From an uncultured Bacteroidota bacterium (GTDB taxonomy: Bacteria > Bacteroidota > Ignavibacteria > Ignavibacteriales > Ignavibacteriaceae), in NCBI GenBank assembly GCA_963710745.1, contig CAVQBP010000025.1, positions 1-32,000 of the forward strand: DNA of 32,000 nucleotides. The letters are read 5' to 3'. Below are positions 265-20,874 of this stretch, piece by piece. The position numbers were made by a program, and so were the translations under genes. Each line of letters starts with the position of its first letter. The first letter of the stretch is position 1. Below the pieces are notes generated by a model. It was not told the origin of the DNA and ran no database searches. It saw only the letters and a program-made list of their open reading frames with translations.

Positions 265-1218
265 ATGGATTATAGGAAAGAATTAATAAACAATTATTGG
301 GAATATCAAGAACTGGCTTTCCCAAACATAAAAGAATATTTTAAATCATCTAAAATAAATGATAAGCCACCTGTTTTTTATCCGCAAACGGAATGGCTTA
401 ACGTTATTATTAATCCGGATGCAAATAAGGATGATATCAAAGATTTTCTAAATTTAATTCCACTTAAAAAAAGACATAGATGGTTTGGCAGTTTTAATAG
501 TTCACAAGCTTTGGCTTTAAGTATTTTAGGAAATCTTAAATCTAAGCTAGAGTATTTAGACGAAATAAAAGATGATGAATTTAATGAAGGATTATTACAG
601 AATGTTCAACCTTTCTCTCCTAAATTTTCATTGGAATTTAAAGTTAATTATTTGAATGAACCTAGAAATACAAGTATCGATGCTTTTGTTGGAGGTGAAT
701 ATCAGATTGCGATTGAATGCAAATTTACTGAAGAAGACATCGGGAATTGTTCACGACCAAAACTTACTATAAAAGATGCGAATTATTTTACTGATTTTTG
801 TAATGGTTCATATTCAATTCAGCGAGAAAGAACGGAAAGATGCTCATTAACCGAAATTGGAATCTTGTATTGGAAATACATTCCTTACTTATTCAATTGG
901 AAAATTGATATAGATTACTCTCCTTGTCCACTTAATTCGACTTACCAGTTAGTAAGAAATATTTTAGCAGCTTGTCTAAAACCCGATAGTGAGTTTCCAT
1001 CGGAAGATAACGGGCATGCATTATTACTTTATGATGAAAGAAATCCGTTTTTTCAAGCCGGTGGTAAAGGAAGTATTGCTTATTCCTTAACGAAAGACGC
1101 ATTAAAGAATAAAAGATTACTTCGTAAATGTAGCTGGCAGAAGATAGTAAGTCATCTTCGTTCAAAAAAAGAATTTGATTGGTTAACAAAAGAAATAAAA
1201 TTAAAATACGGTATATAA
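265..1218 (+). CDS. hypothetical protein, putative PD-(D/E)XK (restriction-endonuclease-like) nuclease
   Basis: 317-aa ORF. The segment SIDAFVGGEYQIAIECKFTEE gives D-x11-E-x-K, the PD-(D/E)XK core pattern. Convergent with the minus-strand block. No other domain recognised. Confidence 0.45.
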   Translation: MDYRKELINNYWEYQELAFPNIKEYFKSSKINDKPPVFYPQTEWLNVIINPDANKDDIKDFLNLIPLKKRHRWFGSFNSSQALALSILGNLKSKLEYLDEIKDDEFNEGLLQNVQPFSPKFSLEFKVNYLNEPRNTSIDAFVGGEYQIAIECKFTEEDIGNCSRPKLTIKDANYFTDFCNGSYSIQRERTERCSLTEIGILYWKYIPYLFNWKIDIDYSPCPLNSTYQLVRNILAACLKPDSEFPSEDNGHALLLYDERNPFFQAGGKGSIAYSLTKDALKNKRLLRKCSWQKIVSHLRSKKEFDWLTKEIKLKYGI

Positions 1219-1252
1219 AAAACAAAAATAAAGAAAGGGTCTGTAAAATAAT

Positions 1253-2129
1253 TTAAGCGACAAAATCTTGTTGATTTGGTATCAACTTTAGGATTTTCCC
1301 AATCGTCATCGGCGCACACCCCTCATAGTGATTATTTACATTCAAATAAACATCCACTCCTCTATTATTCAAATCTTTTATCATCTCAACTATATCTTTC
1401 AATTCCTCATCCCGAGGAATATAAATCTTATTCCAGTTCTCTCCCGATATTTTTTCGATTCCGCTTCTGTCCGGACCATGCAGCCTTATAATTGTCTGAC
1501 CTGTAATATATTCTTTGTATTTATTATAGATTCCTACAACCGGCGGCATAAAATATCCCTGAAGAAAAACATTTGGTAAGATCCAGGTCTTTTAGAAATT
1601 TGAAATAATTGGTGTTAAGATAATTCGGATTTCTAATTTCAATCGACATCGGCGGAACATCTGCCGGCAGGGAGGTGAAGAACCGGTGAAGGTGGTTTTG
1701 GAATTCCGACAGCGAAGACATTTTCTCCTTGTTAAGATACTCAAACTGGAAGATTAAAGAGCCGATTTGATTTTTTATCGGCTTCATTGTCTGCAGGAAC
1801 TCCTCAAACAGATCTACCGACATGAAGTGCGGATTCTTTTGTAGTGGTGCTGATTTATTCCTGTTATAGTAATGAGTAAGAGTAATTGAATTAGGAACTT
1901 TAATCGTGAACTTGAAATCTTCCGGAACTGATGCTTTATATTCTTCAACTGTTTTTTTCTCGGGAAGCTTAACGATATCAAACAAGGACCAGAACCACTG
2001 ATCGACTTCAACAGAGTTGTAATGTTTGGAATATTCTTTGAGATAATTAATTTCATCAAGCTGGGGATAAATTATTCCTTTCCAGGAATCATACTTCCAG
2101 CTGCAGGTGCCTATGATTAGATTTGACAT
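1253..2129 (-). pseudogene. DUF72 (YecE/UPF0759) family protein, split by a single frameshift
   Basis: The 201-aa ORF (1524..2129; MSNLIIGTCSWKYDSWKG...) and the 98-aa ORF (1253..1549; ...IIRLHGPDRSG...VYLNVNNHYEGCAPMT) together cover a full-length DUF72. The second frame is already open as KTWILPNVFLQGYFMPPVVG upstream of its ATG, so the frame switch lies at about 1570-1592. Confidence 0.7.
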
Positions 2130-2167
2130 AAAAATAAATTATACAAATTATAGGAATATGTAAAAGA

Positions 2168-2407
2168 TTACTTTTTATATTTCTCCTCAACCCTTTTCTC
2201 TATAGCTTCTCTTTCAGCTTTTAATATTTTTTGAAGAAAATCATTATACTTTTTTCTATTCTGGGTGCAACCCATACACGAACACTTCTTTTCGTCCAAA
2301 TCAAATATCCGGTAAAGCAGTTCTGCTTTAACTATGGCGGTATAATCTAGTTCATTAGGATTTATATCTCTTCCAAAGAGGTAGGATTTAAATTTTCTTT
2401 TAACCAT
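2168..2407 (-). CDS. hypothetical small protein (79 aa)
   Basis: ORF co-directional with the neighbouring ORFs, 30 nt after the upstream one. Lys/Glu-rich C-terminus. No recognisable domain. Confidence 0.4.
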   Translation of the reverse strand: MVKRKFKSYLFGRDINPNELDYTAIVKAELLYRIFDLDEKKCSCMGCTQNRKKYNDFLQKILKAEREAIEKRVEEKYKK

Positions 2408-2437
2408 TGTGAAAAAACAATTCGATAAATACAGGAA

Positions 2438-2737
2438 TTATATCAAAAAAAGCTTCTCAACCTTTGGTATCTGCTTATAAACATTTAAAAATGCTGTTTT
2501 GTATGAAATCCTGGAAGGAAAGCGGAATAAATCCTCCCCGTCTTTTTTAATCAATACATAATAAACTATTTCCGGTTTTTGGGTAAATAAATTATAATTT
2601 TCATCTTCATAAAAGGTGATATCATAACCCCTGTTTATTAAATCATTAAATTTTGATTCAAAATCATCCATTTTAACCTCCATAAAAATAGTGTACAAAT
2701 GTACACTATTATATTTTAAAATGTCTATATTTGCCAT
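2438..2737 (-). CDS. hypothetical small protein (up to 99 aa; an internal Met start is possible)
   Basis: ORF downstream of, and co-directional with, the NTPase gene. No recognisable domain. Confidence 0.4.
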   Translation of the reverse strand: MANIDILKYNSVHLYTIFMEVKMDDFESKFNDLINRGYDITFYEDENYNLFTQKPEIVYYVLIKKDGEDLFRFPSRISYKTAFLNVYKQIPKVEKLFLI

Positions 2738-4659
2738 AACATTTATGAAAATTTTTTATTGAAAAAATGGAAGAAAAGCAGAAACTCCTGGAATTTGAAA
2801 TTTCCATTAAGGAACGGACCAACTGGGGGGTTACCGGAAAAACGTTTTCAAATCAGGTATTAAAAACAAACCGGGTTACGGTATTAAACTCAAAATGCTT
2901 TAGTTGATCAAATGAATAAATTTTATTACAAGATGGATTAGTGCAGATTATTTTTTTTGAGCTCTCTAAAAAACTTTGTATAATTTTATTAAAATCGAAA
3001 GGTCGGGAAATAAAATACTTACGATATTTTGAACCCTCAGGTTTGCCCCACCTTAAATTACTTTCTGAACATAAACCATAGTTTAATGAATAAATTGATT
3101 GTTTTGAACCGTCTCGATCACTCATTTCATCATATTTAGAAATAAAGAAATTCAACTCCAGTGTACTTATAAATTTTTCATAAGTAGGATTAAAATAAAA
3201 ATGACTAGTGAATGGATTTGTCTTTGATAACTCGTATGCACTACCAGATAATTCATTTGTAATTATTCTTTTTCTTATATCAGAAAGTTCCACCAAAAAT
3301 AATCTGAGAAGTTCTTTTAACTGAAGAATCGATATTTTTTCATCGAAAGCCATTCGTGAAAAAGTTGTTTTTTCAAAAAAGCTAGATATTATTTTATTAT
3401 AGTACTTCTGTGATGCAGATATTAGTGCAGAACGATTTATTGGTTTATCAAAAATAATATTACTTTCATAACAATAGTAAAGAATATAACCAATTATTCT
3501 AGGAACGTTCATTGATATTTGAAAAAGCAACTCATAATAATCATCCATAGTATCTTTACTGGTATCAAAGAAATAATCACAAGATCTATTTGTAAAGTAT
3601 TCAATTCTTCTGATTACTAAACGTCTTGTAAAATCTATGGCTCTTTCTTCCATCGTTGACCTATCAAACTCTGAATAAAGGTTATAAAAATCTAAATCTA
3701 ATATGTCTATCTTACCCTTATCAATGCGTCCATAATAAACACGATTTGGATAAGCGGCAACTTTGAATTTAATAAACTCATCAGACCAATTGTTTAAAGG
3801 AGCAAGTAAAACATCTACAAAGGTTTGCATAGAAACGTCATCAATTTCAGAAAAATCATCAAGAAGTATATAAAGTTTCTTTATACCGAGAATCGATAAT
3901 ATATTTTTAATCTCAGTTATAATATCCTTAATACTAAATAATTGTATCAATATTTCAGAATATTTTTTTTCAAAAGCACCTTGAGATGATTGAGAGATAC
4001 TGGAGGTTAAATTGTTTCCATATTTAATTATAAAAGCAGGATTTGTTAAAGAAGCATTTATATCAATATCAGAATTAGTCCCTTCAGAAGATGTCCTAGA
4101 ATTTTCATTTGCAGAAAATAGTGTGGTATTTATTTGTTTGAGTAATGGAATTTCAATTGATTTTAGTTTCTCATTATTATCTATACAATCATATAGTTTT
4201 TCAAGTTCTTCTCTAACAATGTCTGATTTATCTAAACCTAATAGTTTTTTTAGTTGGGTAAGAATTGGTTTTGATTTTTTATCTAACTCTTCTTTTATTT
4301 CTTTTAACACATTTTGAAGAAAATTTCTTTCAAGAAGGTAATTATGTAGAATATTTTGTGGTATTATATCTTTAAGATAATCGAGAGAAATAAATTCTGA
4401 GCGTGATGAATCATAAATAGAAAACGTGTCAATATAACAAGATATGGTTTTGGGATCTTTTCTAATTTCTTGTTGTAATTTTAAGAAAATAGTTGATTTA
4501 CCAGTTCCTTTTCTTCCAATTAAATAAGTTGTGTTATCTTTTAGGCAAGAATTTAATATTTGATCCTTGGGTAACAAATCTGTATATAAATCATCAATAA
4601 GAGTATTCCCCTCATTATCCGATAATTCTGCACGTCTATACTTCTTTAATGAATCTACT

Positions 4660-4664
4660 GCATT
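4660..4664. repeat. target-site duplication GCATT (left copy)
   Basis: GCATT directly abuts the IS end and is identical to 7153..7157. Confidence 0.8.
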
Positions 4665-4714
4665 TGTTGATTCCGGTTGAAAATTGACCCAGTATTTCGG
4701 TCAAAACTGACCCA
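4665..4714. repeat. IS21 terminal inverted repeat (istB-proximal end)
   Basis: TGTTGATTCCGGTTGAAAATTGACCCAGTATTTCGGTCAAAACTGACCCA aligns with the reverse complement of 7102..7152. Confidence 0.85.
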
Positions 4715-4720
4715 TCTAAG

Positions 4721-5473
4721 TTAACTAGATTTAATTATATTTTTCAACCTAAAGCTCTTTCCATTTATTAAAAAAGGATAAGAATGATGTAATAGTCTGT
4801 CTAATACAGCAGCAGCAACTACATCGTCATTAAATACTTCACCCCATTCTTCAAAGGGTTTGTTAGTGGTAATAATAATCGAACCGGACTCATAACGTTT
4901 AGATATAAGCTGAAAGAATAATTTAGCAGTCTGTTTACTAAGTGCAAGATAACCAAGCTCATCGATAATAATCAAATCTACTCTTGAGAGACTGTCTAAT
5001 GTTTTATTAAGATTACCTGCAAGTTCAGCAGAAGCAAGTAAAACAGTCAGTTGTTCAGCAGTGAAAAATAGAACTCTTTTCCTTGCTTGTACAGCTTTAA
5101 CACCCAGAGCAGTAGCAAGATGAGTTTTACCAACACCGGGAGCACCAACAAATAGTATGTTCTTTGCTTCATCTAAAAAGTTAAGAGAAGCGAGTTCCCT
5201 GATTAGTTTTTCATTTATCTGAGGTTGATAAGAAAAATCAAATTCCTCCAGACGTTTTATTTGAGGGAAACCAGCGATCTGCATCTTGCGGTTAATTGAA
5301 CGTTCTATTTTGCTTAGAACTTCTATCTCCAAAAGCCGCTGCAAATAGTCTTGGTAACCCAGTTTTGCTTTTGCAGCTTTATCAGCTTCATTTCTATAAG
5401 ACTCTTTTATTCTATGAAGTGAAAGTGTCTTTAAGTATTGGTCCGTTAAGGTTTCAGATTTTCCTTCAGTCAT
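4721..5473 (-). CDS. istB: IS21-family helper ATPase IstB
   Basis: 250 aa. Walker A is GAPGVGKTHLA and Walker B is LIIIDELGY. Typical IstB/DnaC-like length and position downstream of istA. Confidence 0.9.
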   Translation of the reverse strand: MTEGKSETLTDQYLKTLSLHRIKESYRNEADKAAKAKLGYQDYLQRLLEIEVLSKIERSINRKMQIAGFPQIKRLEEFDFSYQPQINEKLIRELASLNFLDEAKNILFVGAPGVGKTHLATALGVKAVQARKRVLFFTAEQLTVLLASAELAGNLNKTLDSLSRVDLIIIDELGYLALSKQTAKLFFQLISKRYESGSIIITTNKPFEEWGEVFNDDVVAAAVLDRLLHHSYPFLINGKSFRLKNIIKSS

Positions 5474-5568
5474 AATGTTTATGCTCCTTTTATTTTAACT
5501 AATGTCCGCTCCACTTTCAGCTTCGCTACGAGATTTCTATGGTCTCTTCGCTGAAGCTGAAGTTCCGC

Positions 5569-7056
5569 TTAGAATAACTTATACTGTGATAATTCACGTT
5601 TTACCTGTCCTTTTGGTATTTCTGTTTTCGTTTTTATTGGTTCTATTCTAAATGATTGTTTATGATTCTTCTCCAGGTACCCGGAGATAAATGAATGATT
5701 AAATACATTGTATTCCATAGACTTATTTAATGCCTCAGTTAAATCAATCTTACTGTAGAGCTTTGATAGATAAAGTATCTGCTTTAGTTGCCTATGGGCA
5801 TTGATTCTTTTCTGAGCCAGAAGTTTTTCCAGAAACATGCTATACCCAGGAAAGCTTTCCAGGAACTTCTCTTTAAGTGTTTCAAAGCTTTCTGTAATGT
5901 CTCTATAGCTTTTGTAATGTTCCGGGATAATAATAGTGCTGCTTTTCTTAACTGAGAGCTGATGTTCTGTAATAAATTTATTTGACTGTGAGTATATCTG
6001 CAGGTAATAGCCTTTTGATATTTTTATCCAAACAAATTTCCCGGCAAACATCCAGGGAACTGAGTATCTTGAGCCGTTATAAGATATAAGACAATCGTAT
6101 GATACTTTACGAGTATCTTCTTTGACTCCTACATATCTGTTCTCTGGTAAGGTAAGTAAAGACAGTTTCTCTTTGTTAAACAAATCATCCGGTGTTGTTT
6201 TAGTTGTTGAATGGACTCTGTTGTTTACATCCTTCTGAAAGTCTTTAAGTTTGTTCTGAAGATCCAGGAAGTCTTCAAAAGAAGAACCTGCAATAAAGTG
6301 AGTCTCAACAAAGCTGAAGGGTTTTTCAACTTTACCTTTACTCCAGGGATGACCGGGAAGAGACCTTGAGGGACTAAATCCATAATGGGCACATAGAGTA
6401 AGATAACGAGGATTCCATTGGAAATTATTCTTGGAAGCATTGATAACAAATGCTTTAGCATTATCCGTCTGAACTCTAAGGCATGCACCTTCTGACTGAA
6501 TTATACTATTTTCCAGAGCTTCGAATATAGCTGCCTGGTTCTGAGAAAGTGATACTTCAAATATCTGGTAACGGCTGAATGAGTTGATGTAAGAGCAGAG
6601 ATAAATTTTGGTAAGCTCTCCTCCAATTAGAACCGTATATGGACTCCAGTCATACTGAGCCTGTTCTCCAGGTGCTGTCTCATAAGGAGTAAAGTGTTTT
6701 TGCTCAGAGATTTTTATTTTGGATAAGAAATCATAGAATGCTGTTTGACTTCCTTTATATCCTTTTGACTTTACTTCGTTAAGTATCCTTGAGCCCTTAA
6801 ACTTCTTCACATTGGTCATCTCGAATATAACATCTCTAAATGGTTCAAGAGCTGATACCTTCTTTTGTCGTTTATATTCGGGAACTTCGCTTCTTTGAAG
6901 AGCTTTCTTAACTGTATTACGGCTTATACCAAGCAGACTTGCTATTTGTCTTGACCCTAATCCGGGATTACGTTTTTTGAGATTTTTTATTGTGACCCAG
7001 TCTTCCATTGTAATCAACTCCTTGTCTCCTTGTAAATGTTTGTTTTTGTTAAACAA
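5569..7056 (-). CDS. istA: IS21-family transposase IstA
   Basis: 495 aa. N-terminal HTH (SRQIASLLGISRNTVKKAL) followed by a DDE/integrase-core-like region (YDWSP..., TDNAKAF...). The real start may be the internal MEDWVTIKN. Confidence 0.9.
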   Translation of the reverse strand: MFNKNKHLQGDKELITMEDWVTIKNLKKRNPGLGSRQIASLLGISRNTVKKALQRSEVPEYKRQKKVSALEPFRDVIFEMTNVKKFKGSRILNEVKSKGYKGSQTAFYDFLSKIKISEQKHFTPYETAPGEQAQYDWSPYTVLIGGELTKIYLCSYINSFSRYQIFEVSLSQNQAAIFEALENSIIQSEGACLRVQTDNAKAFVINASKNNFQWNPRYLTLCAHYGFSPSRSLPGHPWSKGKVEKPFSFVETHFIAGSSFEDFLDLQNKLKDFQKDVNNRVHSTTKTTPDDLFNKEKLSLLTLPENRYVGVKEDTRKVSYDCLISYNGSRYSVPWMFAGKFVWIKISKGYYLQIYSQSNKFITEHQLSVKKSSTIIIPEHYKSYRDITESFETLKEKFLESFPGYSMFLEKLLAQKRINAHRQLKQILYLSKLYSKIDLTEALNKSMEYNVFNHSFISGYLEKNHKQSFRIEPIKTKTEIPKGQVKRELSQYKLF

Positions 7057-7101
7057 ATCTATATAAGGAGATATTTTTAATTCATTTTCCTTTTACAAGG
7101 G

Positions 7102-7152
7102 TGGGTCAATTTTCAACCGGAAAAGTGGGTCAGTTTTCAGACGGAAAAAACA
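7102..7152. repeat. IS21 terminal inverted repeat (istA-proximal end)
   Basis: Its reverse complement is TGTTTTTTCCGTCTGAAAACTGACCCACTTTTCCGGTTGAAAATTGACCCA, with two internal sub-repeats like the other end. Confidence 0.85.
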
Positions 7153-7157
7153 GCATT
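7153..7157. repeat. target-site duplication GCATT (right copy)
   Basis: GCATT directly abuts the IS end and is identical to 4660..4664. Confidence 0.8.
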
Positions 7158-7621
7158 AAAAAAGTCATCAAGATTATTTTTCTCATAACTCATAGATACA
7201 CCTATTATGTCTTTTATCAATATAACAGCATTTTATTGTTGTTTTTTCTTAATAATTGGATTTATTCTTAGCTATATAGTTTTTGAATTAAGAAGACACT
7301 TAAAAAGGAATATTTGGTATGGAAGGCAGAGTATTAGAAGAAAAAGCCCCTATATTTAATATCCCTGAATACGTTCATTTTTAAAGTATATTAAAAAAAG
7401 AACATTTACAATAATAATTTATACTTTATTTAATTCTGAAATACTAATAGTTAAAAGTGAGTATTAGTTGGTAGGATAGGAATGAGAGTGATTAAGTGAA
7501 TAATATTTTCTAAAAAAATGAACACCCATATTAAATATTTTATCTAATGATGGTGGGTATAATAATTTTTATATAATTTTTAATCACTTAGTCACTAATT
7601 TGATATTTTCTTCAATATATT

Positions 7622-8227
7622 TCAGTGTGTTTCAAAATCATTTAACCAAGTACCTAATTTAATTGAACAGAATATTTCAAATATTGCAAGTTCTTCTACA
7701 TTATCTATATTAAATAACGCAACCTTTTGTTTCATCAAAAAGGTTTTTGCAGGTTCAACAAAGTTCTTAAAGTCAAACTGTTTGCGTTTACCTACATATT
7801 GATGACCATTCCGAAACTCATAAACAATTAATCCAATTTTAAATGCGAGTGTTGAAGTGTAATGACTTTTACCTTTTAAGTGCTGAAGGATTCTACCAAT
7901 CACTCCTTTTGATATTCCAACGTAAAAAGGTGTTGAATCAACAAAAAAGACATATAAACCTCTAAAATCAATTTTCTCTGTACCGTCTTTTGTTAAATAC
8001 GTTCTTAACCAATCCTCTTTGATTATGCCATCTTTAACTAGCAATTTTTTTGCAGTCTTTTCACCTTTGTTTAAACCAAAATAGTCCTCAACATTAAAAG
8101 TATTCTGTTTCGAATTTAATGACTTGAATCTTTTGTCAAGATTGCAAATAATTTCTTCAAATGTTTTATCGTATTTACGAGATTGACGGATTACTTTTAG
8201 TATTACCTTTTCAAGTTCTTCATTCAT
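7622..8227 (-). CDS. GIY-YIG-like nuclease domain protein
   Basis: 201 aa. GLYVFFVDSTPFYVGISKGVIGRILQH matches the GIY-x10-YxG-x7-R-x3-H layout, and a downstream acidic segment (EELAIFEIF) could supply the catalytic Glu. Starts 41 nt after orf371 on the same strand. Confidence 0.5.
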   Translation of the reverse strand: MNEELEKVILKVIRQSRKYDKTFEEIICNLDKRFKSLNSKQNTFNVEDYFGLNKGEKTAKKLLVKDGIIKEDWLRTYLTKDGTEKIDFRGLYVFFVDSTPFYVGISKGVIGRILQHLKGKSHYTSTLAFKIGLIVYEFRNGHQYVGKRKQFDFKNFVEPAKTFLMKQKVALFNIDNVEELAIFEIFCSIKLGTWLNDFETH

Positions 8228-8268
8228 TTACAAAACTTATATTGTGTTTAATGAAAAAATTAAAATTT

Positions 8269-9384
8269 CTAAAAAGGTGGCTCTTCTTCAAATTTAAATT
8301 TGCCCTTATAATTAAAATAATTTTTTAATATTCTACCAACATGACTCTCAATAAATTTATTTATATTTAATTTTGAGATTAGAGTATCTGGTATATCCAA
8401 ATACAAGATTAGTTCCTGATCGAAGTATCCAAAATCAATATCTTGTATACCTTTAAATGAATTATCATTGTCAATTTTAGAAATTCCAGCATTTATAATA
8501 TTTAATAACTGTTTTTTACAGATTGAATATTGAAACTGGATTTTATTATAATCAGAGACTATATCACTAAAAAATTCATCTCTTAAATCAGAATAGAATT
8601 TCTTATTCCAATTGAATAGTTCATCATAGCCACACAATATATTTTCAAAATTATCATATTTAACGATGTTAACTTTAAAAAACTCATCCTTACCACTGAC
8701 TATAAATCGGTTAATATAGTTGATATTGTTTACCTCATACCCATCAAGGTTAGACTGGTAAAAATTCATATTGACTAAATCTGTTTGTGCTACAGAAATT
8801 AAGTTAAAATTATAAAAACATTTTGATTGTTTTCTTTCAGATAGACTTTTTAACTCAAATGCTAATGCTTTGATTAAAGTTGAAATTGATTCAAAGATTT
8901 TTTTATCATTTTGAGGTGCACCATTTGTCTTTTTCATTTCTTGGAAGGCAAATACTTTTTTTTCAGTTTTATAAATATTATTTAAAAATTCTTCATGCTG
9001 TAAATTATTATTTATTCTATTCTTCCAATCTGAATTCTTAAGCATATATTCTATGTATCTTTCATTTGTCCAATTCGAGATTGGTAAATAATCAAGATTA
9101 GGGTCAAGTTTATCTGCATTTTTTGAAAGAAATACCCAATCATTTTCCTCGGATTTTTTACAGCTAATAAGTAAAGCCGTGTAATAATAAATATCTTTAA
9201 CAAGCTTTACTTTATAGGCGACTATATCGATTTCCCTCACATTCTCGGTAATATCGTCAACATAGTATCTGTTATTAATTACATTCCATTTGTGCTTGGA
9301 GAGGATTTCACTTACTTGATATTCTAATATGTACCCTGTTTTTTCAATTTGATTTTTATATAAGTCTATTTTCTCACTCATCAA
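8269..9384 (-). CDS. hypothetical protein with an N-terminal PD-(D/E)XK-like (Mrr/NERD-like) module, translationally coupled to hsdS
   Basis: 371 aa. YILEYQVSE...REIDIVAYK...ALLISCKKSE gives an E...D...(S)xK pattern. Its ATG overlaps the hsdS stop by 4 nt (ATGA). Confidence 0.5.
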   Translation of the reverse strand: MMSEKIDLYKNQIEKTGYILEYQVSEILSKHKWNVINNRYYVDDITENVREIDIVAYKVKLVKDIYYYTALLISCKKSEENDWVFLSKNADKLDPNLDYLPISNWTNERYIEYMLKNSDWKNRINNNLQHEEFLNNIYKTEKKVFAFQEMKKTNGAPQNDKKIFESISTLIKALAFELKSLSERKQSKCFYNFNLISVAQTDLVNMNFYQSNLDGYEVNNINYINRFIVSGKDEFFKVNIVKYDNFENILCGYDELFNWNKKFYSDLRDEFFSDIVSDYNKIQFQYSICKKQLLNIINAGISKIDNDNSFKGIQDIDFGYFDQELILYLDIPDTLISKLNINKFIESHVGRILKNYFNYKGKFKFEEEPPF

Positions 9385-10604
9385 TTAACCTTTTGTTCGA
9401 ATGCTTCCTTTAATGCTGATTGGAGGAGTTGTTGTATTAAGTCTTGATTCTTCTTTACTTTTTTTTCTAACTCATCACAAACTTTTAATAATTCTTCTAT
9501 TTTTCTACCTATTCTTTTTTGTTCATTCTTTGGTGGAAGTGGGAAAATTTTTGGATATATTCTTTTACCTGAAATGACAGGTTGAGCACCTTGAAAAGAC
9601 ATACTACCTAGATTCAATGCTCTTAAAGTCCATATCAACCAATCTCTATCTATATTATTTTTTGAATAACTAACAATGAATGCATTATCAGTAATCCAAG
9701 CTTTATTTTCAGTTAAATGAACATTCCCACAATTAGCACCAACTCTACCAATAATAATCGTACGTTCTTCAATATTTGATTTTATATGGTAACCATTTAC
9801 ACCATTACCACCATAAACTGGTAAATTGCCATTTTTATCCATTTGATCAGACGTTAGACCATCACCTGATGTAACGGTTATAATATCACCTAACCTACAC
9901 CAAACCCAATTATCAGGAATTACAAATGGAATATCTTCTTCTTTAGTTGGTGGAATTGGTCTTCCCTTTTTGAGTCTCTTTGCTTTTATGAGTTTCTCTT
10001 TTTCTTGTTGAATTTTTTCTAAAAGAAGAAAAGCAGGTTCATCATTTGGGTCTTTTAAAACTAGCTTACCTTGAATTGCATTATTTAAAATCCGTTGCTT
10101 CAGTTTCTTTAAATTTAATTCTTGATTATTAAGAAGTGAACTTAACTTATCAATAAGTATTGATAATTTTTTTTCTAGTCCAATTATTTTTTTCTGCTTA
10201 TCTAAGGATGGGATCTCAATTTCTAAATCTGCAATTTTATTCATTGGTAAACTAACATTTGCCGCCCCCTTCATTAAAGGGACTAGGAGACTGTCCTTAT
10301 ATTGAGTTAGGTAAATATGAAGATATTTTGCATTTATTATCTTTTCATTCCTTGGAATTAGAGCACATAAAATTGTTCCCAATGCAAACTTACCTTCCTG
10401 ATAGTGAATTCTTTTCATACTTGCATGACCGTGACCTGTACTTGAAATCAGCGGTACGATTACTGCTTTTGCGTTAAACTGATAATTGTTATGTGTTTTT
10501 CTCTCTTCAGATAATGTTACCAATGGATAAGAACCTGGTACTGCCTTTGTAATTCCTGTTGTTCCTTTAGTAAGAGTACATATATCATCTAAACGAAATA
10601 TCAT
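9381..10604 (-). CDS. hsdS: Type I restriction-modification specificity subunit HsdS
   Basis: 407 aa. Two target-recognition halves separated by a coiled conserved spacer (LDKQKKIIGLEKKL... and a C-terminal EQKRIGRKIEELL...). 4-nt overlap with hsdM. Confidence 0.85.
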   Translation of the reverse strand: MIFRLDDICTLTKGTTGITKAVPGSYPLVTLSEERKTHNNYQFNAKAVIVPLISSTGHGHASMKRIHYQEGKFALGTILCALIPRNEKIINAKYLHIYLTQYKDSLLVPLMKGAANVSLPMNKIADLEIEIPSLDKQKKIIGLEKKLSILIDKLSSLLNNQELNLKKLKQRILNNAIQGKLVLKDPNDEPAFLLLEKIQQEKEKLIKAKRLKKGRPIPPTKEEDIPFVIPDNWVWCRLGDIITVTSGDGLTSDQMDKNGNLPVYGGNGVNGYHIKSNIEERTIIIGRVGANCGNVHLTENKAWITDNAFIVSYSKNNIDRDWLIWTLRALNLGSMSFQGAQPVISGKRIYPKIFPLPPKNEQKRIGRKIEELLKVCDELEKKVKKNQDLIQQLLQSALKEAFEQKVN

Positions 10605-12058
10605 GATTTAGTGAGCAATTCTTTAATTTGTGAAATCAGTTCATTCATCTTTTTATCATTTTCTTCAATATTATTCAAAATATCATTTAACGATTCTATA
10701 TTATCCTCACTAACAGAATTGGGATTTTTAATATCTAAGTCATATTTTCTTTCAATTATAGTTCTAATATCTACCCTCCACGAATTACCACTCTCTTTTC
10801 TATTGTTCCACCATTTTTTAATAGGTTCAAATTCTTTCAGACTAAGTGGATTAGTTTTAGAATATGATTTTATACCTTCTTGATATTTATGTTGGTAGTA
10901 CCATACTTCTTTAGTTTTCTTTCCTTTTTGAAAGAATAATAAATTCGTGGCAACTGTGGCGTAGGGTTTAAAAACAGAATTAGGTAATCGTATAATAGTA
11001 TGAAGGTTACAATCCTCTAAAAGTTTTTGCCTAATCCTTTCTTTAACTCCTTCACCTGTCAAAGAACCATCAGGCAACACTATTCCTGCTCTACCACCAT
11101 CTTTAAGTAAGTGAATCATTAAAATCAGAAATAAGTCTGCGCTTTCTTTTGTTTGATAACTCTTTGGAAAGTTTCTTTCATAATTATTTGCTACTATACC
11201 GCCAAAAGGAGGATTAGCAAGAATAATATTCACTCTGTCCTTTTCGGAATAGTTAATTAGTGGTTTATCTAGCGAATCTCTATAAGTAATGTTTGGAACC
11301 TCAATATCGTGCAAAATTAAATTTGTCGTTGCTAAAAGATATGGTAATGGCTTACTTTCCCAACCTGCTACCATATTTTTTATTGATTGTCTTTCTTCAA
11401 CACTATTTGCTTGCGCTTTTAACTTCTCAATTACCGCCGTAAGAAAACCACCAGTTCCGCAAGCAGGATCTAAAATCTTTTCATCTAATTTTGGATTAAC
11501 CATATCGGTTATAAACTGAGTAACAGCACGAGGAGTATAATATTCTCCACTATCACCTGCACTCTGTAACTCCTTTAATATACTTTCATAAATTTCACCA
11601 AACAGATGTCTGTCTTTTGCAATGTTAAAATCGAGTTCATTTAGTTTGTTCAAGGCTTTACGAATGTTGATACCACTTTTCATGTAGTTGTGGTTACCTT
11701 CGAAAACTTCACGAACAATCAATGCTCTGCCATTACCTGTGTTAAGGCTTAGATTTCTTAAGGTTGGGAACAATTTTCTGTCCACGAATTCAAGTAATTC
11801 ATCACCTGTCATTCCTTCATCATCACCCGCCCAATTTCCTTTTTGTTTAATCCAATGAAATTCTTCTGGGATCGGTGACTTGTATCTATCATTGATGAGT
11901 TCTAATTCTCTATCTTTATCACTAAATATTTTTAAGAATAACATCCAACCTAATTGTTCAATCCGTTGAGCATCACCATTAATTCCGATGTCCTGCCTCA
12001 TAATATTACGAATGGATTTTACAACACCTGAAATGTTTGACATAGTATTATCTTTCAA
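10601..12058 (-). CDS. hsdM: Type I restriction-modification DNA methyltransferase subunit HsdM (N6-adenine)
   Basis: HsdM_N-like N-terminus (DAQRIEQLGWMLFLKIF), AdoMet motif DPACGTGGFL and catalytic NPPFG. The tracked start at 12058 is TTG; ATG at 12043 (MSNISGVV...) is the likelier start. Confidence 0.9.
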   Translation of the reverse strand: MKDNTMSNISGVVKSIRNIMRQDIGINGDAQRIEQLGWMLFLKIFSDKDRELELINDRYKSPIPEEFHWIKQKGNWAGDDEGMTGDELLEFVDRKLFPTLRNLSLNTGNGRALIVREVFEGNHNYMKSGINIRKALNKLNELDFNIAKDRHLFGEIYESILKELQSAGDSGEYYTPRAVTQFITDMVNPKLDEKILDPACGTGGFLTAVIEKLKAQANSVEERQSIKNMVAGWESKPLPYLLATTNLILHDIEVPNITYRDSLDKPLINYSEKDRVNIILANPPFGGIVANNYERNFPKSYQTKESADLFLILMIHLLKDGGRAGIVLPDGSLTGEGVKERIRQKLLEDCNLHTIIRLPNSVFKPYATVATNLLFFQKGKKTKEVWYYQHKYQEGIKSYSKTNPLSLKEFEPIKKWWNNRKESGNSWRVDIRTIIERKYDLDIKNPNSVSEDNIESLNDILNNIEENDKKMNELISQIKELLTKS

Positions 12059-12833
12059 TAATAGGAAACCAAAATATGTTTAATAATTTGAGTAGCCATT
12101 CTCGATATTCAATAAAATTAAGGTATATATTATCACTTTGCTCAGGTAAAAATGAGATTAATTCTTCTTGGAATGCTATTTCTCTTAAAATACTCAATTC
12201 GGAACTAATACCTTCCGTGAAGTTTATTGAATCATATGCACGATTAATTTCAAGCAATTGATTAACATCTATTGTGGTTCCTTCTATTTTTATTGGGTCT
12301 GAACAAATATGTTTATCAACCGTATCGAAAAGAACTAGCGGAGATGAATTTATGGGAACTTTTAATCTTTGTATCTCTTGCTGAGCCATATCAAAATGCA
12401 TTGTATTAGTCATTATCGTTTTCTGAGAGAAAAAGGTATTAAAATCATTCATAGTATGAAATAGAGGAGCACAATAATATACTTTCTTTCTTGGTTTCTT
12501 TGCTAACTTTTGCAAATAATTAAATTGTTTAGAACCTGAAACATTATAAATATTAAAAGCATGTTTAGGTGTTATGGAGGTATTAATTGTTATTCCACCT
12601 TTTAAAGAATAAAATATTTTATGATTATAATACTTACTTCTCTTGAATTGGTAATAAACAGAGTATTTATACCTATTCTTTTTACCATATTTTTTCAAGA
12701 TTAAATCCGCAGCCCATTCCTTTTCTTCTCGAGTTGATGGAGCATAAATTCTGAATACATTTGGAATTGAATTAAATAGCTCTCTTGCGTAACCAAGTAC
12801 AAACTGAGTTTCTGAAAATTCACTCTTTAACAT
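12048..12833 (-). CDS. hypothetical protein embedded between hsdR and hsdM; possible PD-(D/E)XK-like fold
   Basis: 261 aa. Its ATG lies 14 nt inside the hsdR 3' end and its stop is 4 nt before the hsdM ATG. SETQFVLGYARELF...WAADLILKK...SVYYQFKRS resembles the E...D...QxK arrangement of DUF4365/NERD-type nucleases; this is a weak, motif-only call. Confidence 0.45.
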   Translation of the reverse strand: MLKSEFSETQFVLGYARELFNSIPNVFRIYAPSTREEKEWAADLILKKYGKKNRYKYSVYYQFKRSKYYNHKIFYSLKGGITINTSITPKHAFNIYNVSGSKQFNYLQKLAKKPRKKVYYCAPLFHTMNDFNTFFSQKTIMTNTMHFDMAQQEIQRLKVPINSSPLVLFDTVDKHICSDPIKIEGTTIDVNQLLEINRAYDSINFTEGISSELSILREIAFQEELISFLPEQSDNIYLNFIEYREWLLKLLNIFWFPIIER

Positions 12834-15213
12834 TATAAATCCTGTAAATTTCTTGTTCTAATTCTCTCACAGCAAAGAGATAATTATCCTTATTACCAAA
12901 TTGATTTATAATTTCTACTGCTGAACCAAAATCTGTTAAAGGTTTAACCTTTAATATTTCCATACTTTCAATATTATCAATCCCTTCGTCAGAGTATTTA
13001 TCTAATAATGCTTCAAGAACCTTTCTTAATTGCTCACCATACTTTGTAAAGTAATTTCTCTTTTTAACATTATTTGCTCGTTCTTTTCGTGTTAATGGTG
13101 GTTGGTCATAAGCAACATGACAAATTATATCAAACAGGTCTACTTCCCAATTAACTGCTTTAAGAAGTTCATCAACCAATACTCCCTGTTCTTCAAGTTC
13201 TTTTATTATTGCTGTTTTTCTATCAGCACTGCTCCAAGAATTTATAAACTCATCGAGTGATGAATAATTTCCTTTTATTATTTTTCTTGTATAATCTTTA
13301 AGACTTGTTGTAATTGGTTTACCATCATTATCAAAATATAAATTACGTGTAACTAAGACTGATACATCAATACCATTTACATAAACTTTTTTACTAGGTG
13401 GTATGTCTATACCTGTCGGAGGTTTTCTAATTTCCGGTGGAACAAATATTATCTCTTCTCCACTTTCATCATCAATCACGGGTGTAGTTTGTAGTTCTTC
13501 CTCATCAACAATTTTTCCAATATCGGTATCTTCAGTTACAGGTTTTATCCTTATTGGTTCACCATCAAAATCTTTATCTGCAAATAAGTCCGTTGCGTTT
13601 CTGAAATCTAAAATATTAAAATATAGTTTATCAAAATCTTCCCTTATTCGAGTTCCTCTACCAATTATCTGTTTAAATTTAGTCATTGATTTAATGTTTG
13701 AATCTAATACAATTACCTTACAAGTTTGTGCATCAACACCTGTAGTCATTAACTCTGAAGTAGTAGCAATTACTGGATATTTTTCTTCGGGATTGATGAA
13801 ATTATCTAATTCCCTTTTCCCTTCATCATTATCACCGGTGATTTGCATTATATACTTGTAATTTTCATGAACAAGATCAGGATTATGCTGAGAAAGTGCA
13901 AACCGCATTCTTTCAGCATGATCAATATCAACACAAAAGATTATTGTTTTTGCAAATCGGTCATAACCTTTTAAGAATTCAGTTACTTTCTTTGCTACCG
14001 TATCTGTTCTTTCTTCAATAACAAGTTTTTTATCAAAATCCGTTCGATTATAAATTCTATCCTCAACGGGTTCTCCCCAAATATCAGTTTTATCTGTAGT
14101 AGGTCTCCAGCCTTCAAGGTCTACATTTAATCCAATTCGAATAACCCTGTATGGTGCAAGAAAACCATCTTCGATACCTTGCCGCAATGAATAAGTGTAA
14201 ATCGGGTCTCCAAAATACTCGATATTACTTAGCGTTTTTGTTTCTTTGGGAGTGGCTGTAAGACCTATCTGAGTAGCTTTATCAAAATATTGAAGTATAT
14301 CTCTCCAAGCACTATCTTCTTTAACACTTCCCCTATGGCACTCGTCAACAATAACCAAATCAAAGAAATCTCGAGAGAATTGTTTGTAGATATTCTTGTC
14401 TTCTTCATTACCTGATAAACCTTGATATAATGACAAATAAAGCTCATAACTTTTATCAACTTCTCTATGCTTTACTACTGTCATTACATCTTTAAAATGT
14501 TTGAAATCCCCAATCCTTGCTTGGTCTATTAAGATATTTCTGTCTGCTAAAAATAGTATTCTTTTTTTAGTACCTGCCTTCCATAATCTGTATGCTATTT
14601 GAAATGCCACATAAGTTTTACCCGTACCTGTTGCCATCACAATAAGAATTCTATTTTCACCCTTTGCAATAGCTTCAACACAACGGTTAATAGCAATCTG
14701 TTGATAATATCTCGGTTTTCTACCAGAACCATCAAAATAAAAATCCTGTGTAACTACTCTTTCAATTTCAGGCGTTTGTATACCTTTAAACTTTTTATAT
14801 TTCTCCCATAAGACATTAGGTGAAGGAAAACTATCAATATCTAATATTACTTCAATACCTTTATCGGTTGCAGTTTTATCATGGAATAGAAATCCATCAC
14901 CATTACTGCTGAATACGAATGGTAAATCAAGTATCCTAGCATAATCTAGTGCTTGTTGTATACCGGCTCTAACTGAATGGTTATTATCTTTTGCTTCAAT
15001 GACAGCAATAGGAATATTTGGTTTATAATAGAGGATGTAATCTGCTTTTTTTGCCTTTCCCCTTTTTGTAAGTTTTCCCCTAACATAGATTTTACCATCT
15101 GTGAAATAAACTTCTTCAAGAAACTGCGTTTGTTTATTCCAATCTGCTTTCTCAAGAGCAGGGGTAATAAATTTTGTGCAAATATCACGTTCTGAAAGAG
15201 TTTTTTTATCCAA
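12820..15213 (-). CDS. hsdR: Type I restriction enzyme endonuclease/translocase subunit HsdR
   Basis: 797 aa. N-terminal SERDICTKFITPALEKADW, helicase motif I MATGTGKT, motif II VIVDECHRG, and a C-terminal DUF3387-like tail. Confidence 0.9.
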   Translation of the reverse strand: MDKKTLSERDICTKFITPALEKADWNKQTQFLEEVYFTDGKIYVRGKLTKRGKAKKADYILYYKPNIPIAVIEAKDNNHSVRAGIQQALDYARILDLPFVFSSNGDGFLFHDKTATDKGIEVILDIDSFPSPNVLWEKYKKFKGIQTPEIERVVTQDFYFDGSGRKPRYYQQIAINRCVEAIAKGENRILIVMATGTGKTYVAFQIAYRLWKAGTKKRILFLADRNILIDQARIGDFKHFKDVMTVVKHREVDKSYELYLSLYQGLSGNEEDKNIYKQFSRDFFDLVIVDECHRGSVKEDSAWRDILQYFDKATQIGLTATPKETKTLSNIEYFGDPIYTYSLRQGIEDGFLAPYRVIRIGLNVDLEGWRPTTDKTDIWGEPVEDRIYNRTDFDKKLVIEERTDTVAKKVTEFLKGYDRFAKTIIFCVDIDHAERMRFALSQHNPDLVHENYKYIMQITGDNDEGKRELDNFINPEEKYPVIATTSELMTTGVDAQTCKVIVLDSNIKSMTKFKQIIGRGTRIREDFDKLYFNILDFRNATDLFADKDFDGEPIRIKPVTEDTDIGKIVDEEELQTTPVIDDESGEEIIFVPPEIRKPPTGIDIPPSKKVYVNGIDVSVLVTRNLYFDNDGKPITTSLKDYTRKIIKGNYSSLDEFINSWSSADRKTAIIKELEEQGVLVDELLKAVNWEVDLFDIICHVAYDQPPLTRKERANNVKKRNYFTKYGEQLRKVLEALLDKYSDEGIDNIESMEILKVKPLTDFGSAVEIINQFGNKDNYLFAVRELEQEIYRIYNVKE

Positions 15214-15321
15214 CCTTATTTTTTCCCGTCTGTTGGAATGCTAAATTCACTTTGTTAATATTTCTGATAAAAACAAATTTAAGTTTTTATAACTTAAAAA
15301 AACAATAACTTTATTTGGTTT

Positions 15322-15972
15322 CTATAATGATAATTTCTTTCTAAGGTTAGAAACTAATTTCTTATTTAATTTATTCCTGTGGATATACATGAGAGTTTGT
15401 AACATATGTTCTGCCTTAAATGCATGGTATATTTGTGAATTATGAGTGCTTATTTCAAGAATTTTATTTAATTGTCTAATATTGTAATCGGAGAACTGTT
15501 CAAGGATTTTTACTCTTTGATTTGTTGACTCAAAATCTTCGCTTTTCCCAAAATAGTTAATAGCACTATTTAAGAATTTAACCTTAGTTTTTTTATGAAG
15601 AATCTCAATAATTTTATTATAAGTATACCCATGATTTGATTTTCTGAGATTGATTGCTTGAATTTTCGATAAGAAACCATATGGATTTAAATCAACTTTA
15701 ATCGGGATTATTAGAATTTGTTTTCTTAACGCATATCCTGATTCTTGATCTGTCCAGTCAGACTTTTTAAACTCCTTAGTTAGCAAGGGAATAAATACAT
15801 CCATTTTCTTCAAGCTTTTTAATATTTGTGTTTGCCATTCATCTGTTGGATTAATTGTATCATGCGCTAAGAAAACTTCTAAACCATATTTATTAAAATA
15901 TGCTTTCATTTCACCTGCTAATCTTTTATTTGAGGTGGAATAACTTATAAAAATTTGCAGTATTGATGTCAT
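15322..15972 (-). CDS. TIR-domain protein (stand-alone, ThsB-like size)
   Basis: 216 aa. IFISYSTSNKRLAGEMKAYFNKYGLEVFLAHDTI...DVFIPLLTKEFKKSDWTDQESGYA follows the bacterial TIR_2 pattern, including the conserved Glu. The C-terminal ~100 aa are unassigned. Confidence 0.75.
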   Translation of the reverse strand: MTSILQIFISYSTSNKRLAGEMKAYFNKYGLEVFLAHDTINPTDEWQTQILKSLKKMDVFIPLLTKEFKKSDWTDQESGYALRKQILIIPIKVDLNPYGFLSKIQAINLRKSNHGYTYNKIIEILHKKTKVKFLNSAINYFGKSEDFESTNQRVKILEQFSDYNIRQLNKILEISTHNSQIYHAFKAEHMLQTLMYIHRNKLNKKLVSNLRKKLSL

Positions 15973-16153
15973 AATATCCCTCTTGTGCTTTTTAATAAAC
16001 CGCTTTTAAATTTCAAAAGAAAATAATAACTTATCAATAATTAATTTGATTCCTTTTTGATCGCTTAATGATATATTTGGAATAGATATTGCTTTATAAT
16101 ATTAACAAATTAACTAATAATTAAGTTCTTTGGAAGTATGTAGGTAGTTAAAA

Positions 16154-16648: not shown

Positions 16649-16702
16649 AAATAACTTTTTTTTATAAAAAATCTTTAGTGGAAAAAATTAGAATTGACTT
16701 AT

Positions 16703-16776
16703 GAGCCTCTTAGGATTTTGAACCTATGGTCTTCCGCATGTGAAACGGACGCTCTAACCAGCTGAGCTAAGAGTCC
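16703..16776 (-). tRNA. tRNA-Val(CAC)-like gene with a defective 3' half (possibly a pseudo or hybrid tRNA)
   Basis: Good D arm (GCTCAGCTGGTTAGAGC) and anticodon arm (TCCGT-TTCACAT-GCGGA). The T arm has only 4 bp with an 8-nt loop, and acceptor pair 3-70 is A.G. Confidence 0.5.
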
Positions 16777-16989
16777 TCGGCAAAATAAAATCTCAAAATG
16801 AAAAACAATCAATTTAGAAAATTGTAATTTTAACCTGATATCTCTATATTTCAAGTCCCTTCAATTGACATTCCTTTTTTGCCCGCCTTCCAAAGAACTT
16901 TGTTCGGCGGACAGGCCAAGATAGGAATATTAATTAGAAGACTTCGTTGAACCTGCCTGCAGTAGCCTTTCGGCAAAGGCAGGCAAGAG

Positions 16990-20262: not shown

Positions 20263-20784
20263 ATGGCTAATCTCAGAGCTAAAGAGGCAGGTATTATACC
20301 GCAAAAAGAGAAGGTCCAAATATTAGACGGACTTAGAGAAAAAAACCGCAAACATTATCAGCTAATTTATTTTTTACTTGCTACGGGGTTCAGAGCTGGC
20401 GAGGCTTTGAACCTGGATTTTAAAGATATTGACCTCAAGAGGGATTTAATTCTTGTCAAAAATGCTAAAAGTAAAAGAATAGATTGGTTTCCAATTTATC
20501 CGGCGTTAAGAGAATTCATAATTGATGAATTTACGTTTAGGGTAGGAAAAGTTTTTGATTTCAAGAACCGTCATTCGTTAAAATTTTTTGAACGTTTTCT
20601 TAGGGATTTAGGTTATAATCATTACACTTTACGGGCACTTAGAAAAACATTTATAAACGACTTAGTAAATTTTGGATTACCAATTACAGACGTCATGGTA
20701 ATGACCAGACTTAAGCAGCCACCTTTTATAAAAAATCTGAACTTGATGAAAAGTAAATATGCTTTGAAAATATCTCATGAATAA
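20263..20784 (+). pseudogene. tyrosine recombinase remnant (catalytic domain only, degenerate C-terminus)
   Basis: Paralogous to 21327..21962 (NRKHYQLIYFLLATGFRAGEA vs NRKHYRVIAFLLLTGLRRGE; SLKFFERFL vs SLKFFEKFL). It lacks the N-terminal domain and the final H...Y motif. Confidence 0.6.
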
Positions 20785-20874
20785 GTATCGCTATCAATTT
20801 AAAAGGAATAATAACGCTTACCGTATCCGCAGCTTATCTAAATAATCATTTAACAACTAAGCAGGGAGGATGAA

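Follow-up and report, generated by a model that had tools for sequence, protein, structure and literature searches.

An IS21-interrupted, truncated gene exposes a widespread family of ORC/Cdc6-like ATPases with a possible role in defense

ATPases of the ORC/Cdc6 type recur in DNA-conflict systems, among them BrxC, DUF499/MtsA, SspC, and HerA-coupled proteins (PMC12839542, PMC10853773, bioRxiv 10.64898/2026.09.23.753747), and MtsA (DUF499) loads a methyltransferase in MANTIS (bioRxiv 10.64898/2026.09.23.753747). DS-41 (“AAA2,” WP_033812887.1, 502 amino acids [aa], from E. coli) is a single-gene antiphage system that has been validated with phage (DeWeirdt et al., Science 2026, DefensePredictor, PMC13092281). 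Its relatives carry the NCBI name Sll1717 family. Here we describe the gene of a distant sister of these ATPases in the window, a 32,000-nucleotide (nt) stretch of DNA from an uncultured Ignavibacteriaceae bacterium (positions 1 to 32,000 of contig CAVQBP010000025.1, assembly GCA_963710745.1). The window locus, which carries an IS21-family insertion sequence (IS) and has lost its 3′ end, is a dead copy, a pseudogene with two independent lesions, and the family to which it belongs is an uncharacterized variant of the ORC/Cdc6-type conflict ATPases. The explanation that best covers all of the evidence, and that we consider reasonably probable, combines a dead copy with two lesions in the window and intact members elsewhere that act as stand-alone antiphage or anti-mobile-element proteins.

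Architecture and relatives of the ATPase

In silico removal of the IS together with one copy of its GCATT target-site duplication fused ATG-7193 in frame to ...AVDSLKKYRRAE... and gave 615 codons, as had been proposed from the letters of the window (the sequence-only reading), where the product was taken for an intact protein of that length. Searching 5.8 billion proteins, we retrieved 1726 relatives with top identities of 61-63%, and nearly all of the best 120 relatives listed were 697-727 aa long, not 615. A homologous open reading frame (ORF) of 695-740 aa was likewise present in 81 of 85 genomic loci. We concluded that the native product is ~710 aa and that the 615-aa form is not intact: the window ATPase follows the family as far as ...QLKHFEFN (residue 606, window position 2883), and its last nine codons are foreign residues followed by a stop. 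The following parts of the gene survive.

7153 to 7193, minus strand: 5′ fragment, comprising ATG-7193, codons 1-13, and 2 nt (MSYEKNNLDDFFN), which aligns to the N termini of homologs
2883 to 4659, minus strand: main fragment, codons 14-606, placed by alignment to homologs
4491 to 4517, minus strand: Walker A, GRKGTGKST, in the main fragment
3846 to 3875, minus strand: Walker B, LYILLDDFSE, in the main fragment
2928 to 2945, minus strand: first Cys pair of the zinc ribbon, in the main fragment

Both Walker motifs are present, and the earlier description of a P-loop NTPase knocked out at codon 14 holds. The main fragment also retains the coiled-coil insert, the lid, and the conserved alpha/beta domain.

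For an intact member (P0003, which shares 61% identity with the window protein), an AlphaFold2 model built from an 85-sequence alignment reached a predicted local distance difference test (pLDDT) score of 84.6 and a predicted template modeling (pTM) score of 0.84. In this model, a short N-terminal helix leads into a P-loop core in which Walker A occupies residues 62-70, and a helical coiled-coil insert of ~150 residues (115-270) separates strand 2 (85-91) from the Walker B strand (275-281). Walker B (residues 281-285) is followed by a helical lid with an invariant NVPR motif and, at ~495-580, by a compact alpha/beta domain of ~90 aa that is the most conserved stretch of the protein (consensus TSHF..P..E.F..TLELNFFISKY.E.SDRDG.K.S.Y.LNYGL...N.RWGKP). 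The C-terminal part consists of a zinc ribbon (C586, C591, C610, and C613) and then a winged helix. GRKGTGKST, LDDFSE, and NVPR(401) are invariant across the 85 members, and we infer that R401 in the lid is the sensor 2 residue. The sequence-only reading had described a low-complexity insert of ~200 aa and a Cys-containing tail. There is indeed an insert before Walker B, but it is mostly predicted coiled coil, disordered at 202-235 only (~35 residues); the Cys pair is also real, but it opens a four-Cys zinc ribbon of which the remainder is deleted.

Comparison of the model with the PDB by Foldseek gave Orc1/Cdc6 as the top match (2qby_B, E 3e-5, probability 1.0); next came ORC subunits, BrxC of BREX, and TnsC. 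The template modeling scores (TM-scores) were low (0.2-0.5) because the protein has many domains. The C-terminal ~75 residues of intact members (~640-712) matched MarR/ZitR/MepR folds (Foldseek probability 1.0, E 0.04-0.3), and a profile search of PDB sequences gave only weak winged helix-turn-helix (wHTH) matches, to Lrs14 and AspA. The post-lid alpha/beta domain, modeled alone with acceptable quality (pLDDT 77.5), had no significant fold match in the PDB (its wHTH-type matches had E ≥ 0.15), so that a nuclease role can be named for it as a possibility only, and we set the nuclease reading aside. Foldseek against viral structures likewise gave no significant match. On the model, the protein is an ORC/Cdc6-like AAA+ ATPase with a predicted coiled-coil insert, alpha/beta domain, zinc ribbon, and winged helix.

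Among curated sequence families, NCBIfam models alone matched the window protein. “P-loop ATPase, Sll1717 family” (NF047389) scored 35.4 bits with the window protein and 33-46 bits with eight of nine intact members (cutoff 75; E values of 6e-9 to 5e-12), and “DS41_1_antiphage” (NF053860) scored 26-45 bits in three of the nine (cutoff 370; E up to 7e-12). Alignment of the window family to the DS-41 family with hhalign gave a probability of 66.6% (E 5.4e-5), over the Walker B-lid region only. Judged from these comparisons, the window family is a distant, longer sister of the DS-41/Sll1717 ATPases, a remote homolog and not a member. Both are single-gene, occur across bacteria and archaea, and are linked by hidden Markov model matches at E 1e-8 to 5e-12 and a profile-profile E of 5e-5. 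They also have the same ATPase layout (N-terminal helix, Walker A, long helical insert, Walker B, and a lid with (S/V)PR) and a DNA-binding-like C-terminal region after the lid. However, the window family is ~200 aa longer (~710 versus ~502 aa), and DS-41 lacks its alpha/beta domain, four-Cys zinc ribbon, and MarR-like winged helix. Protection against phage upon expression has been shown for DS-41 itself.

With the ORC/Cdc6 clade (Orc1/Cdc6, BrxC, MtsA, SspC, and TnsC), the family shares its best fold matches (2qby_B, ORC4/5-type subunits, BrxC 9zdx, and TnsC) and, probably, the succession of an AAA+ core, a lid, and DNA-binding modules of the winged-helix type, and it parallels MtsA in that it adjoins methyltransferases or restriction enzymes in a subset of loci. 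It differs from the clade in its low TM-scores (0.2-0.5), in its lack of sequence-level membership, and in a coiled-coil insert far longer than the usual helical insert. Unlike the ORC/Cdc6 conflict systems, it is mostly solo, with no PglZ, PglX, BrxB, DUF3870, or HerA partner. Membership in SspC, BrxC, or MtsA was rejected, as neither the partner genes nor sequence-level matches were found.

Other labels fared less well. Databases name the family a MarR, ArsR, or wHTH regulator. MarR regulators are dimers of ~150-aa proteins with the wHTH as their main body, whereas in the window family the wHTH makes up just ~10% of the protein (the MarR-like part spans just ~640-712) and the rest is ATPase; in the window copy, the winged helix is deleted altogether. 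We therefore rejected membership in the MarR family. The KAP/STAND-like label of the sequence-only reading also had to be dropped in favor of Orc1/Cdc6 as the best fold. KAP_NTPase was not among the Pfam matches, the insert is a predicted soluble coiled coil with a disordered tip where KAP proteins have transmembrane helices, and the sole KAP match, to one BFVD structure, was nonsignificant (E 4e-3). The STAND profiles stayed below threshold (NPHP3_N, 17.7 bits against a cutoff of 24.8; nSTAND_NTPase5, 12.9 against 34). Neither Pfam nor PADLOC includes a model dedicated to the family, and in the literature on Sll1717, the member accessions, and ORC-like defense proteins we found no description of it.

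Distribution, genomic context, and function

An HMMER scan of 1.84 billion cluster representatives identified 474 clusters (50% identity) at E up to 1e-3, 166 of them at E up to 1e-30. Members occur in a patchy pattern across many bacterial phyla (including cyanobacteria, Vibrio, Bacteroidota, and Clostridia) and several archaeal lineages, and the neighbor-joining tree of the family is at odds with taxonomy, which argues for horizontal transfer. This is a widespread, horizontally moved, single-gene, accessory family.

Plasmid and phage copies were represented by a single plasmid and by one phage fragment, found in two database records of the same phage. Enterobacter hormaechei plasmid NZ_CP058193.1 (L086), a 6-kb MOBP mobilizable plasmid, carries a full-length member (34% identity) within the region 1901-4986, with a CcdAB toxin-antitoxin pair next to it. 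In Vibrio cholerae CP173754.1 (L003, 16-8367), a KSF-1-like filamentous prophage, interrupted by an IS3 element, abuts the family member. The 7.1-kb genome of KSF-1phi (L087, NC_006294) maps wholly onto this prophage and includes the first 367 bp (residues 1-122) of the V. cholerae member, annotated as ORF XII and ORF XIII, from which it follows that the phage either carries the 5′ end of the gene or integrates through it.

All-against-all clustering of 772 neighboring ORFs revealed no conserved partner, the largest neighbor clusters being methyltransferases, each in 7 of 82 loci. The immediately upstream gene lay on the same strand as the family member in 56 of 74 loci and in ~8 of the 74 encoded a type II restriction enzyme (DpnII, AlwI, and TdeIII types included), some of which directly adjoin the start codon of the ATPase gene or overlap it (L040, L042, L051, and L063). 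A type I R subunit, methyltransferases, and AbiJ-like and RelA/SpoT-like proteins were found in the same position at other loci. Taken together, type II restriction enzymes, methyltransferases, AbiJ, and RelA/SpoT-like proteins stood immediately upstream in roughly a fifth of the loci. Using BLAST with restriction-modification (RM) proteins as seeds, we found that RM-like ORFs made up 5.6% of those within 2 kb, 2.1% of those at 2-4 kb, and 1.1% or less of those beyond. They occurred near family members in 11 of 81 loci, from several separate clades, which is a minimum figure given the small seed set. Among gene-called contexts, conflict-type neighbors included fragments of NACHT, HigB, and GmrSD genes in Nostoc, a protein with DUF4917 (probably SIR2-like) in Pseudoalteromonas, and a thymidine-hypermodification-like cluster in Sphingobacterium.

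The remote homology to Sll1717/DS-41 and the repeated adjacency to RM genes make a defense role plausible, and we lean, by a modest degree, toward the intact protein being an antiphage or anti-mobile-element factor. In such a role, the zinc ribbon and winged helix would recognize DNA, and ATP binding would drive an ORC-like assembly on it, as in ORC/Cdc6, TnsC, and BrxC. The assembled ATPase could then block replication of the invader or, alternatively, help to load or activate neighboring nucleases such as type II restriction enzymes. The alpha/beta domain might be the effector or a surface that binds a partner, and its invariant charged residues might form a catalytic or partner-binding site.

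Several observations weigh against a defense role. The similarity to Sll1717 and DS-41 is far under both curated cutoffs, and the hhalign probability for the DS-41 family is just 67%. No effector domain was recognized in the ATPase family, and a scan of the repaired protein and the neighboring ORFs against PADLOC-DB v2 gave no real match (the only one, to mad8, at E 0.006 and 14 bits, is a generic P-loop match that MeaB gives also). Most neighbors of family members are ordinary or unknown genes. In the plasmid NZ_CP058193.1, the start of the member overlaps the stop codon of Rep (Replicase plus PriCT_1) by 4 bp, and such translational coupling to a Rep gene also fits a role in replication or maintenance.

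The strongest competitor casts the family members as ATP-dependent regulators that bind DNA, or else as factors for the replication or maintenance of mobile elements (ORC-like initiators, loaders, or partition-type proteins), which travel with plasmids, phages, and islands and lie near defense genes only through hitchhiking. The database names (MarR, ArsR, or wHTH regulator), the 4-bp overlap with Rep on the 6-kb MOBP plasmid, the abutting KSF-1-like prophage and the 367 bp of the V. cholerae gene in the phage genome, the ORC/Cdc6, TnsC, and clamp-loader folds of the nearest structures, and the housekeeping genes that flank many loci all agree with it. However, no replication, integrase, or partition gene recurs alongside family members, the only recurrent neighbors are RM genes, which are concentrated within 2 kb, and the nearest sequence family includes a validated antiphage protein. 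Small plasmids and prophages commonly carry defense cargo. On these grounds we consider a regulatory or replicative role unlikely, though it is the competitor to be taken most seriously.

The defense role can also be cast in a narrower form, in which the intact members are a new stand-alone immune or exclusion ATPase that either works as an ORC-like loader or activator with type II restriction enzymes or holds its effector in the alpha/beta domain. The loader/activator version is prompted by the translational coupling of members after DpnII-, AlwI-, and TdeIII-type restriction enzymes in several unrelated lineages and, by analogy, would parallel the loading of a methyltransferase by MtsA in MANTIS. 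We regard this specific proposal as speculative and assign it a low probability.

Two lesions in the window copy

The first lesion of the window gene is the IS, for which the following features were assigned.

4665 to 7152, minus strand: IS21-family element of 2488 bp, oriented like the ATPase gene
7103 to 7152, minus strand: istA-proximal terminal inverted repeat, starting TGTTTTTTCC, with repeated TGACCCA blocks
4665 to 4714, plus strand: istB-proximal terminal inverted repeat, starting TGTTGATTCC
5569 to 7008, minus strand: istA transposase gene (ORF open to 7056; 479-aa gene call in L091)
4721 to 5473, minus strand: istB gene for the helper AAA+ ATPase, 250 aa (PF01695, NF038214)
7153 to 7157: target-site duplication, copy 1 (GCATT on the plus strand)
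4660 to 4664: target-site duplication, copy 2 (GCATT on the plus strand)

The ends of the element read TGTTGATTCCGGTTGAAAATTGACCCA... and TGTTTTTTCCGTCTGAAAACTGACCCA..., both with repeated TGACCCA blocks; on the minus strand, it begins TGTTTTTTCCGTC at 7152 and finishes ...GGAATCAACA at 4665. They are imperfect inverted repeats, initiated by TG, that contain a perfect inverted pair of 21 nt (4671-4691 and 7102-7122). IstA scored 222.9 bits with NF033546 (cutoff 160) and also matched rve and Mu-transpos_C_2, IstB scored 280.7 bits with NF038214 (cutoff 200) and matched PF01695 at E 1.3e-79, and the 5-bp GCATT duplication is perfect. The identification of an IS21 element at 4665-7152 between GCATT copies was therefore correct. 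This is an ordinary IS21-family member with every defining feature of the family (istA plus istB, TG-initiated, repeat-bearing ends, a 5-bp duplication within the family range of 4-8 bp, and a length of ~2.5 kb), from which it differs in nothing of note. Further copies or close relatives of it are present in related Ignavibacteriaceae assemblies, and insertion of IS21 elements into accessory genes is routine.

The repaired product aligned to homologs without gaps over the junction, conserved F11, A14, L18, and K19 included. As conserved positions thus lie on either side, the insertion is genuine and the native start is ATG-7193, upstream of the insertion, as the sequence-only reading had it. 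Contig L092 (run ERR11523667), which was assembled independently and is 99.99% identical, has this insertion too and stops 52 bp into the IS, and the right IS junction is also found in a contig of a metagenome-assembled genome (MAG; L091, JBAVZG010000228.1). L091 (positions of note, 1-127 and 3066-3225) carries the same IS at 99.97% identity, with a response-regulator gene on the other flank. Its ATPase gene sequence covers 446 bp and breaks off at window position 4214, where the contig passes directly to the DUF72 3′ end (window position 1452, 92.5% identity). The contig may reflect a chimeric assembly or, in another strain, a second copy of the IS together with a larger deletion.

The second lesion is at the 3′ end, where the features are these.

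2883 to 2885: deletion junction, with 3 nt of microhomology (AAT)
2853 to 2882, minus strand: foreign nine-codon tail TVTRFVFNT plus stop, antisense of the neighboring gene
2767 to 2885, plus strand: truncated small gene, MEEKQKLLEFEISIKERTNWGV..., first ~39 codons (a complete 67-aa ORF in L093)

Past residue 606, relatives continue with KMxCxxC (the second half of the zinc ribbon) and then ~75 residues called MarR, ArsR, or winged helix in databases. The window ATPase has lost ~105 codons, namely the second CxxC of the zinc ribbon and the whole MarR-like winged helix. A contig from a related strain (L093, 97.9% identity) matches the window from 2885 down to 1296 only and is unrelated farther to the left. 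Its plus-strand ORF starting MEEKQKLLEFEISIK... is complete at 67 aa, and the window copy is cut after ~39 codons, at a point that coincides exactly with the end of the ATPase homology. AAT alone is common to both sides of the join. Because the match to L093 ends at 2885, the 67-aa ORF is intact there, and the overlap is restricted to AAT, we read positions 2883-2885 as a deletion junction between two convergent genes, both of them truncated. The junction lies 1.8 kb from the end of the IS, which argues that the deletion was an event separate from the insertion; for the same reason, we rejected the idea that the IS brought about the 3′ loss by deleting adjacent DNA. Hence the gene has decayed beyond the insertion, contrary to what had been stated. 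The suggestion that inactivation was recent fared better: the retained 606 residues keep 88 of the 89 covered family-invariant positions (the sole change being F59Y), and the inactivation was therefore probably recent.

It should be borne in mind against this account that the window is a metagenome assembly and that the 3′ junction is known from contigs, not reads. The truncation could then be an assembly artifact, the real genome being full-length at the 3′ end and the IS the sole lesion. In addition to the derivation of the window from a MAG, the odd ATPase-DUF72 join at lower identity in L091, from the same population, speaks for such an artifact, because it indicates that strain mixtures exist. 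However, the join at 2883-2885 overlaps by only 3 nt (AAT) between two unique sequences, and de Bruijn assemblers require overlaps of k-mer length to make false joins. Moreover, the truncation of both joined genes fits a real deletion. We consider an artifact very improbable.

Neighboring genes and meaning of the family

Beyond the deletion junction lie two small ORFs, which the sequence-only reading had given as 99 and 79 aa and had joined to the ATPase in a candidate defense module.

2438 to 2671, minus strand: 77-aa ORF (listed as 99 aa from 2737), with no Pfam, PADLOC, or NCBIfam match
2168 to 2407, minus strand: 79-aa ORF, with no Pfam, PADLOC, or NCBIfam match
2687 to 2710: perfect palindrome, arms of 10 bp (AATAGTGTACA-AA-TGTACACTATT), separating the divergent ORFs of 67 and 77 aa

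The length of 79 aa stands, but the ORF listed as 99 aa probably represents a gene of 77 aa with its start at 2671. Gene calls in L093 are 77 and 79 aa, the 77-aa gene has a GGAGG ribosome-binding site, and the 99-aa product has no exact-match record, the gene being called as 77 aa. Promoter-like hexamers and the palindrome lie between this gene and the divergent 67-aa gene, and the palindrome, which overlaps the hexamers, is possibly an operator for a small regulator. The divergent small ORF (46/67 aa) matched no family in a Pfam scan. Neither the 99- nor the 79-aa ORF had a tblastn match within ±10 kb of 85 ATPase homologs. In L093, the small ORFs form a block with an intact 296-aa DUF72 gene, and the left neighbor is unrelated noncoding sequence with no ATPase gene. 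We concluded that the 77- and 79-aa ORFs are a separate transcription unit of the flanking DUF72 block and do not belong to the ATPase unit. The three-gene module, in which a gene complete at 615 aa apart from the IS acts with the two small ORFs, had in its favor that all three ORFs lie close together on one strand and that IS excision restores the frame, but it is refuted, with hardly any probability left to it, by homologs of ~710 aa (the window copy lacking the second CxxC and the winged helix), by the absence of the small ORFs at 85 homolog loci, by their own promoter-like site and palindrome, and by their position next to unrelated sequence in a related strain. Of the candidate defense module, what remains plausible is a defense gene, in view of the likeness to Sll1717/DS-41, the RM adjacency, and the defense-rich stretch in which the gene lies.

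In the window, the DUF72 gene itself (1253-2129, minus strand) is split into 201-aa and 98-aa ORFs by an extra base near 1579 relative to L093, which marks either a frameshift pseudogene or a sequencing error. In place of the ATPase gene, L093 has noncoding sequence (1-713) with about seven copies of an 8-nt motif (GGGAGTGA or TCACTCCC) in both orientations, possibly an array of repeats or a region of structured RNA.

Positions 265 to 16000 of the window make up a defense-rich stretch containing a type I RM operon, a TIR gene, and a REase-ARP gene. The ATPase gene follows the RM operon on the same strand, with two unknown genes attached to the operon. These encode 371 and 201 aa (7622-9384, minus strand) and follow hsdS; the 371-aa gene overlaps the hsdS stop codon by 4 bp, the 201-aa product has a weak GIY-YIG-like match, and the two may be accessory genes of the operon. 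An unknown 261-aa gene lies between hsdR and hsdM. The TIR-domain gene (15322-15972, minus strand; TIR_2, E 1.6e-18) stands alone, and the REase-ARP/PD-(D/E)xK gene is at 265-1218 (plus strand). A tRNA-Val gene (16702-16777, minus strand) lies at the edge of the stretch. Farther on (20263-21962, plus strand) are three adjacent tyrosine recombinase ORFs, two with the catalytic domain and one with the Arm-binding/SAM-like domain; as each is a fragment, we take them to be decayed integrases. A direct repeat (D5/D9, spacing ~612 bp) suggests tandem integrase remnants.

As a pseudogene, the window locus is of little weight alone, and its value lies in the family that it exposed. It also shows that a gene repaired by IS removal in silico should be compared with the length of its homologs before it is called intact. 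Databases mislabel the >1700 detected proteins of this family as MarR regulators. In several lineages, no other partner-like neighbor recurs beside type II RM cassettes that are otherwise classical. If the family members do defend their hosts, a DNA-binding ORC-like ATPase with no obvious effector would join the single-gene systems, and the family would provide a tractable system in which to examine how ATPases of the ORC/Cdc6 type work in immunity.

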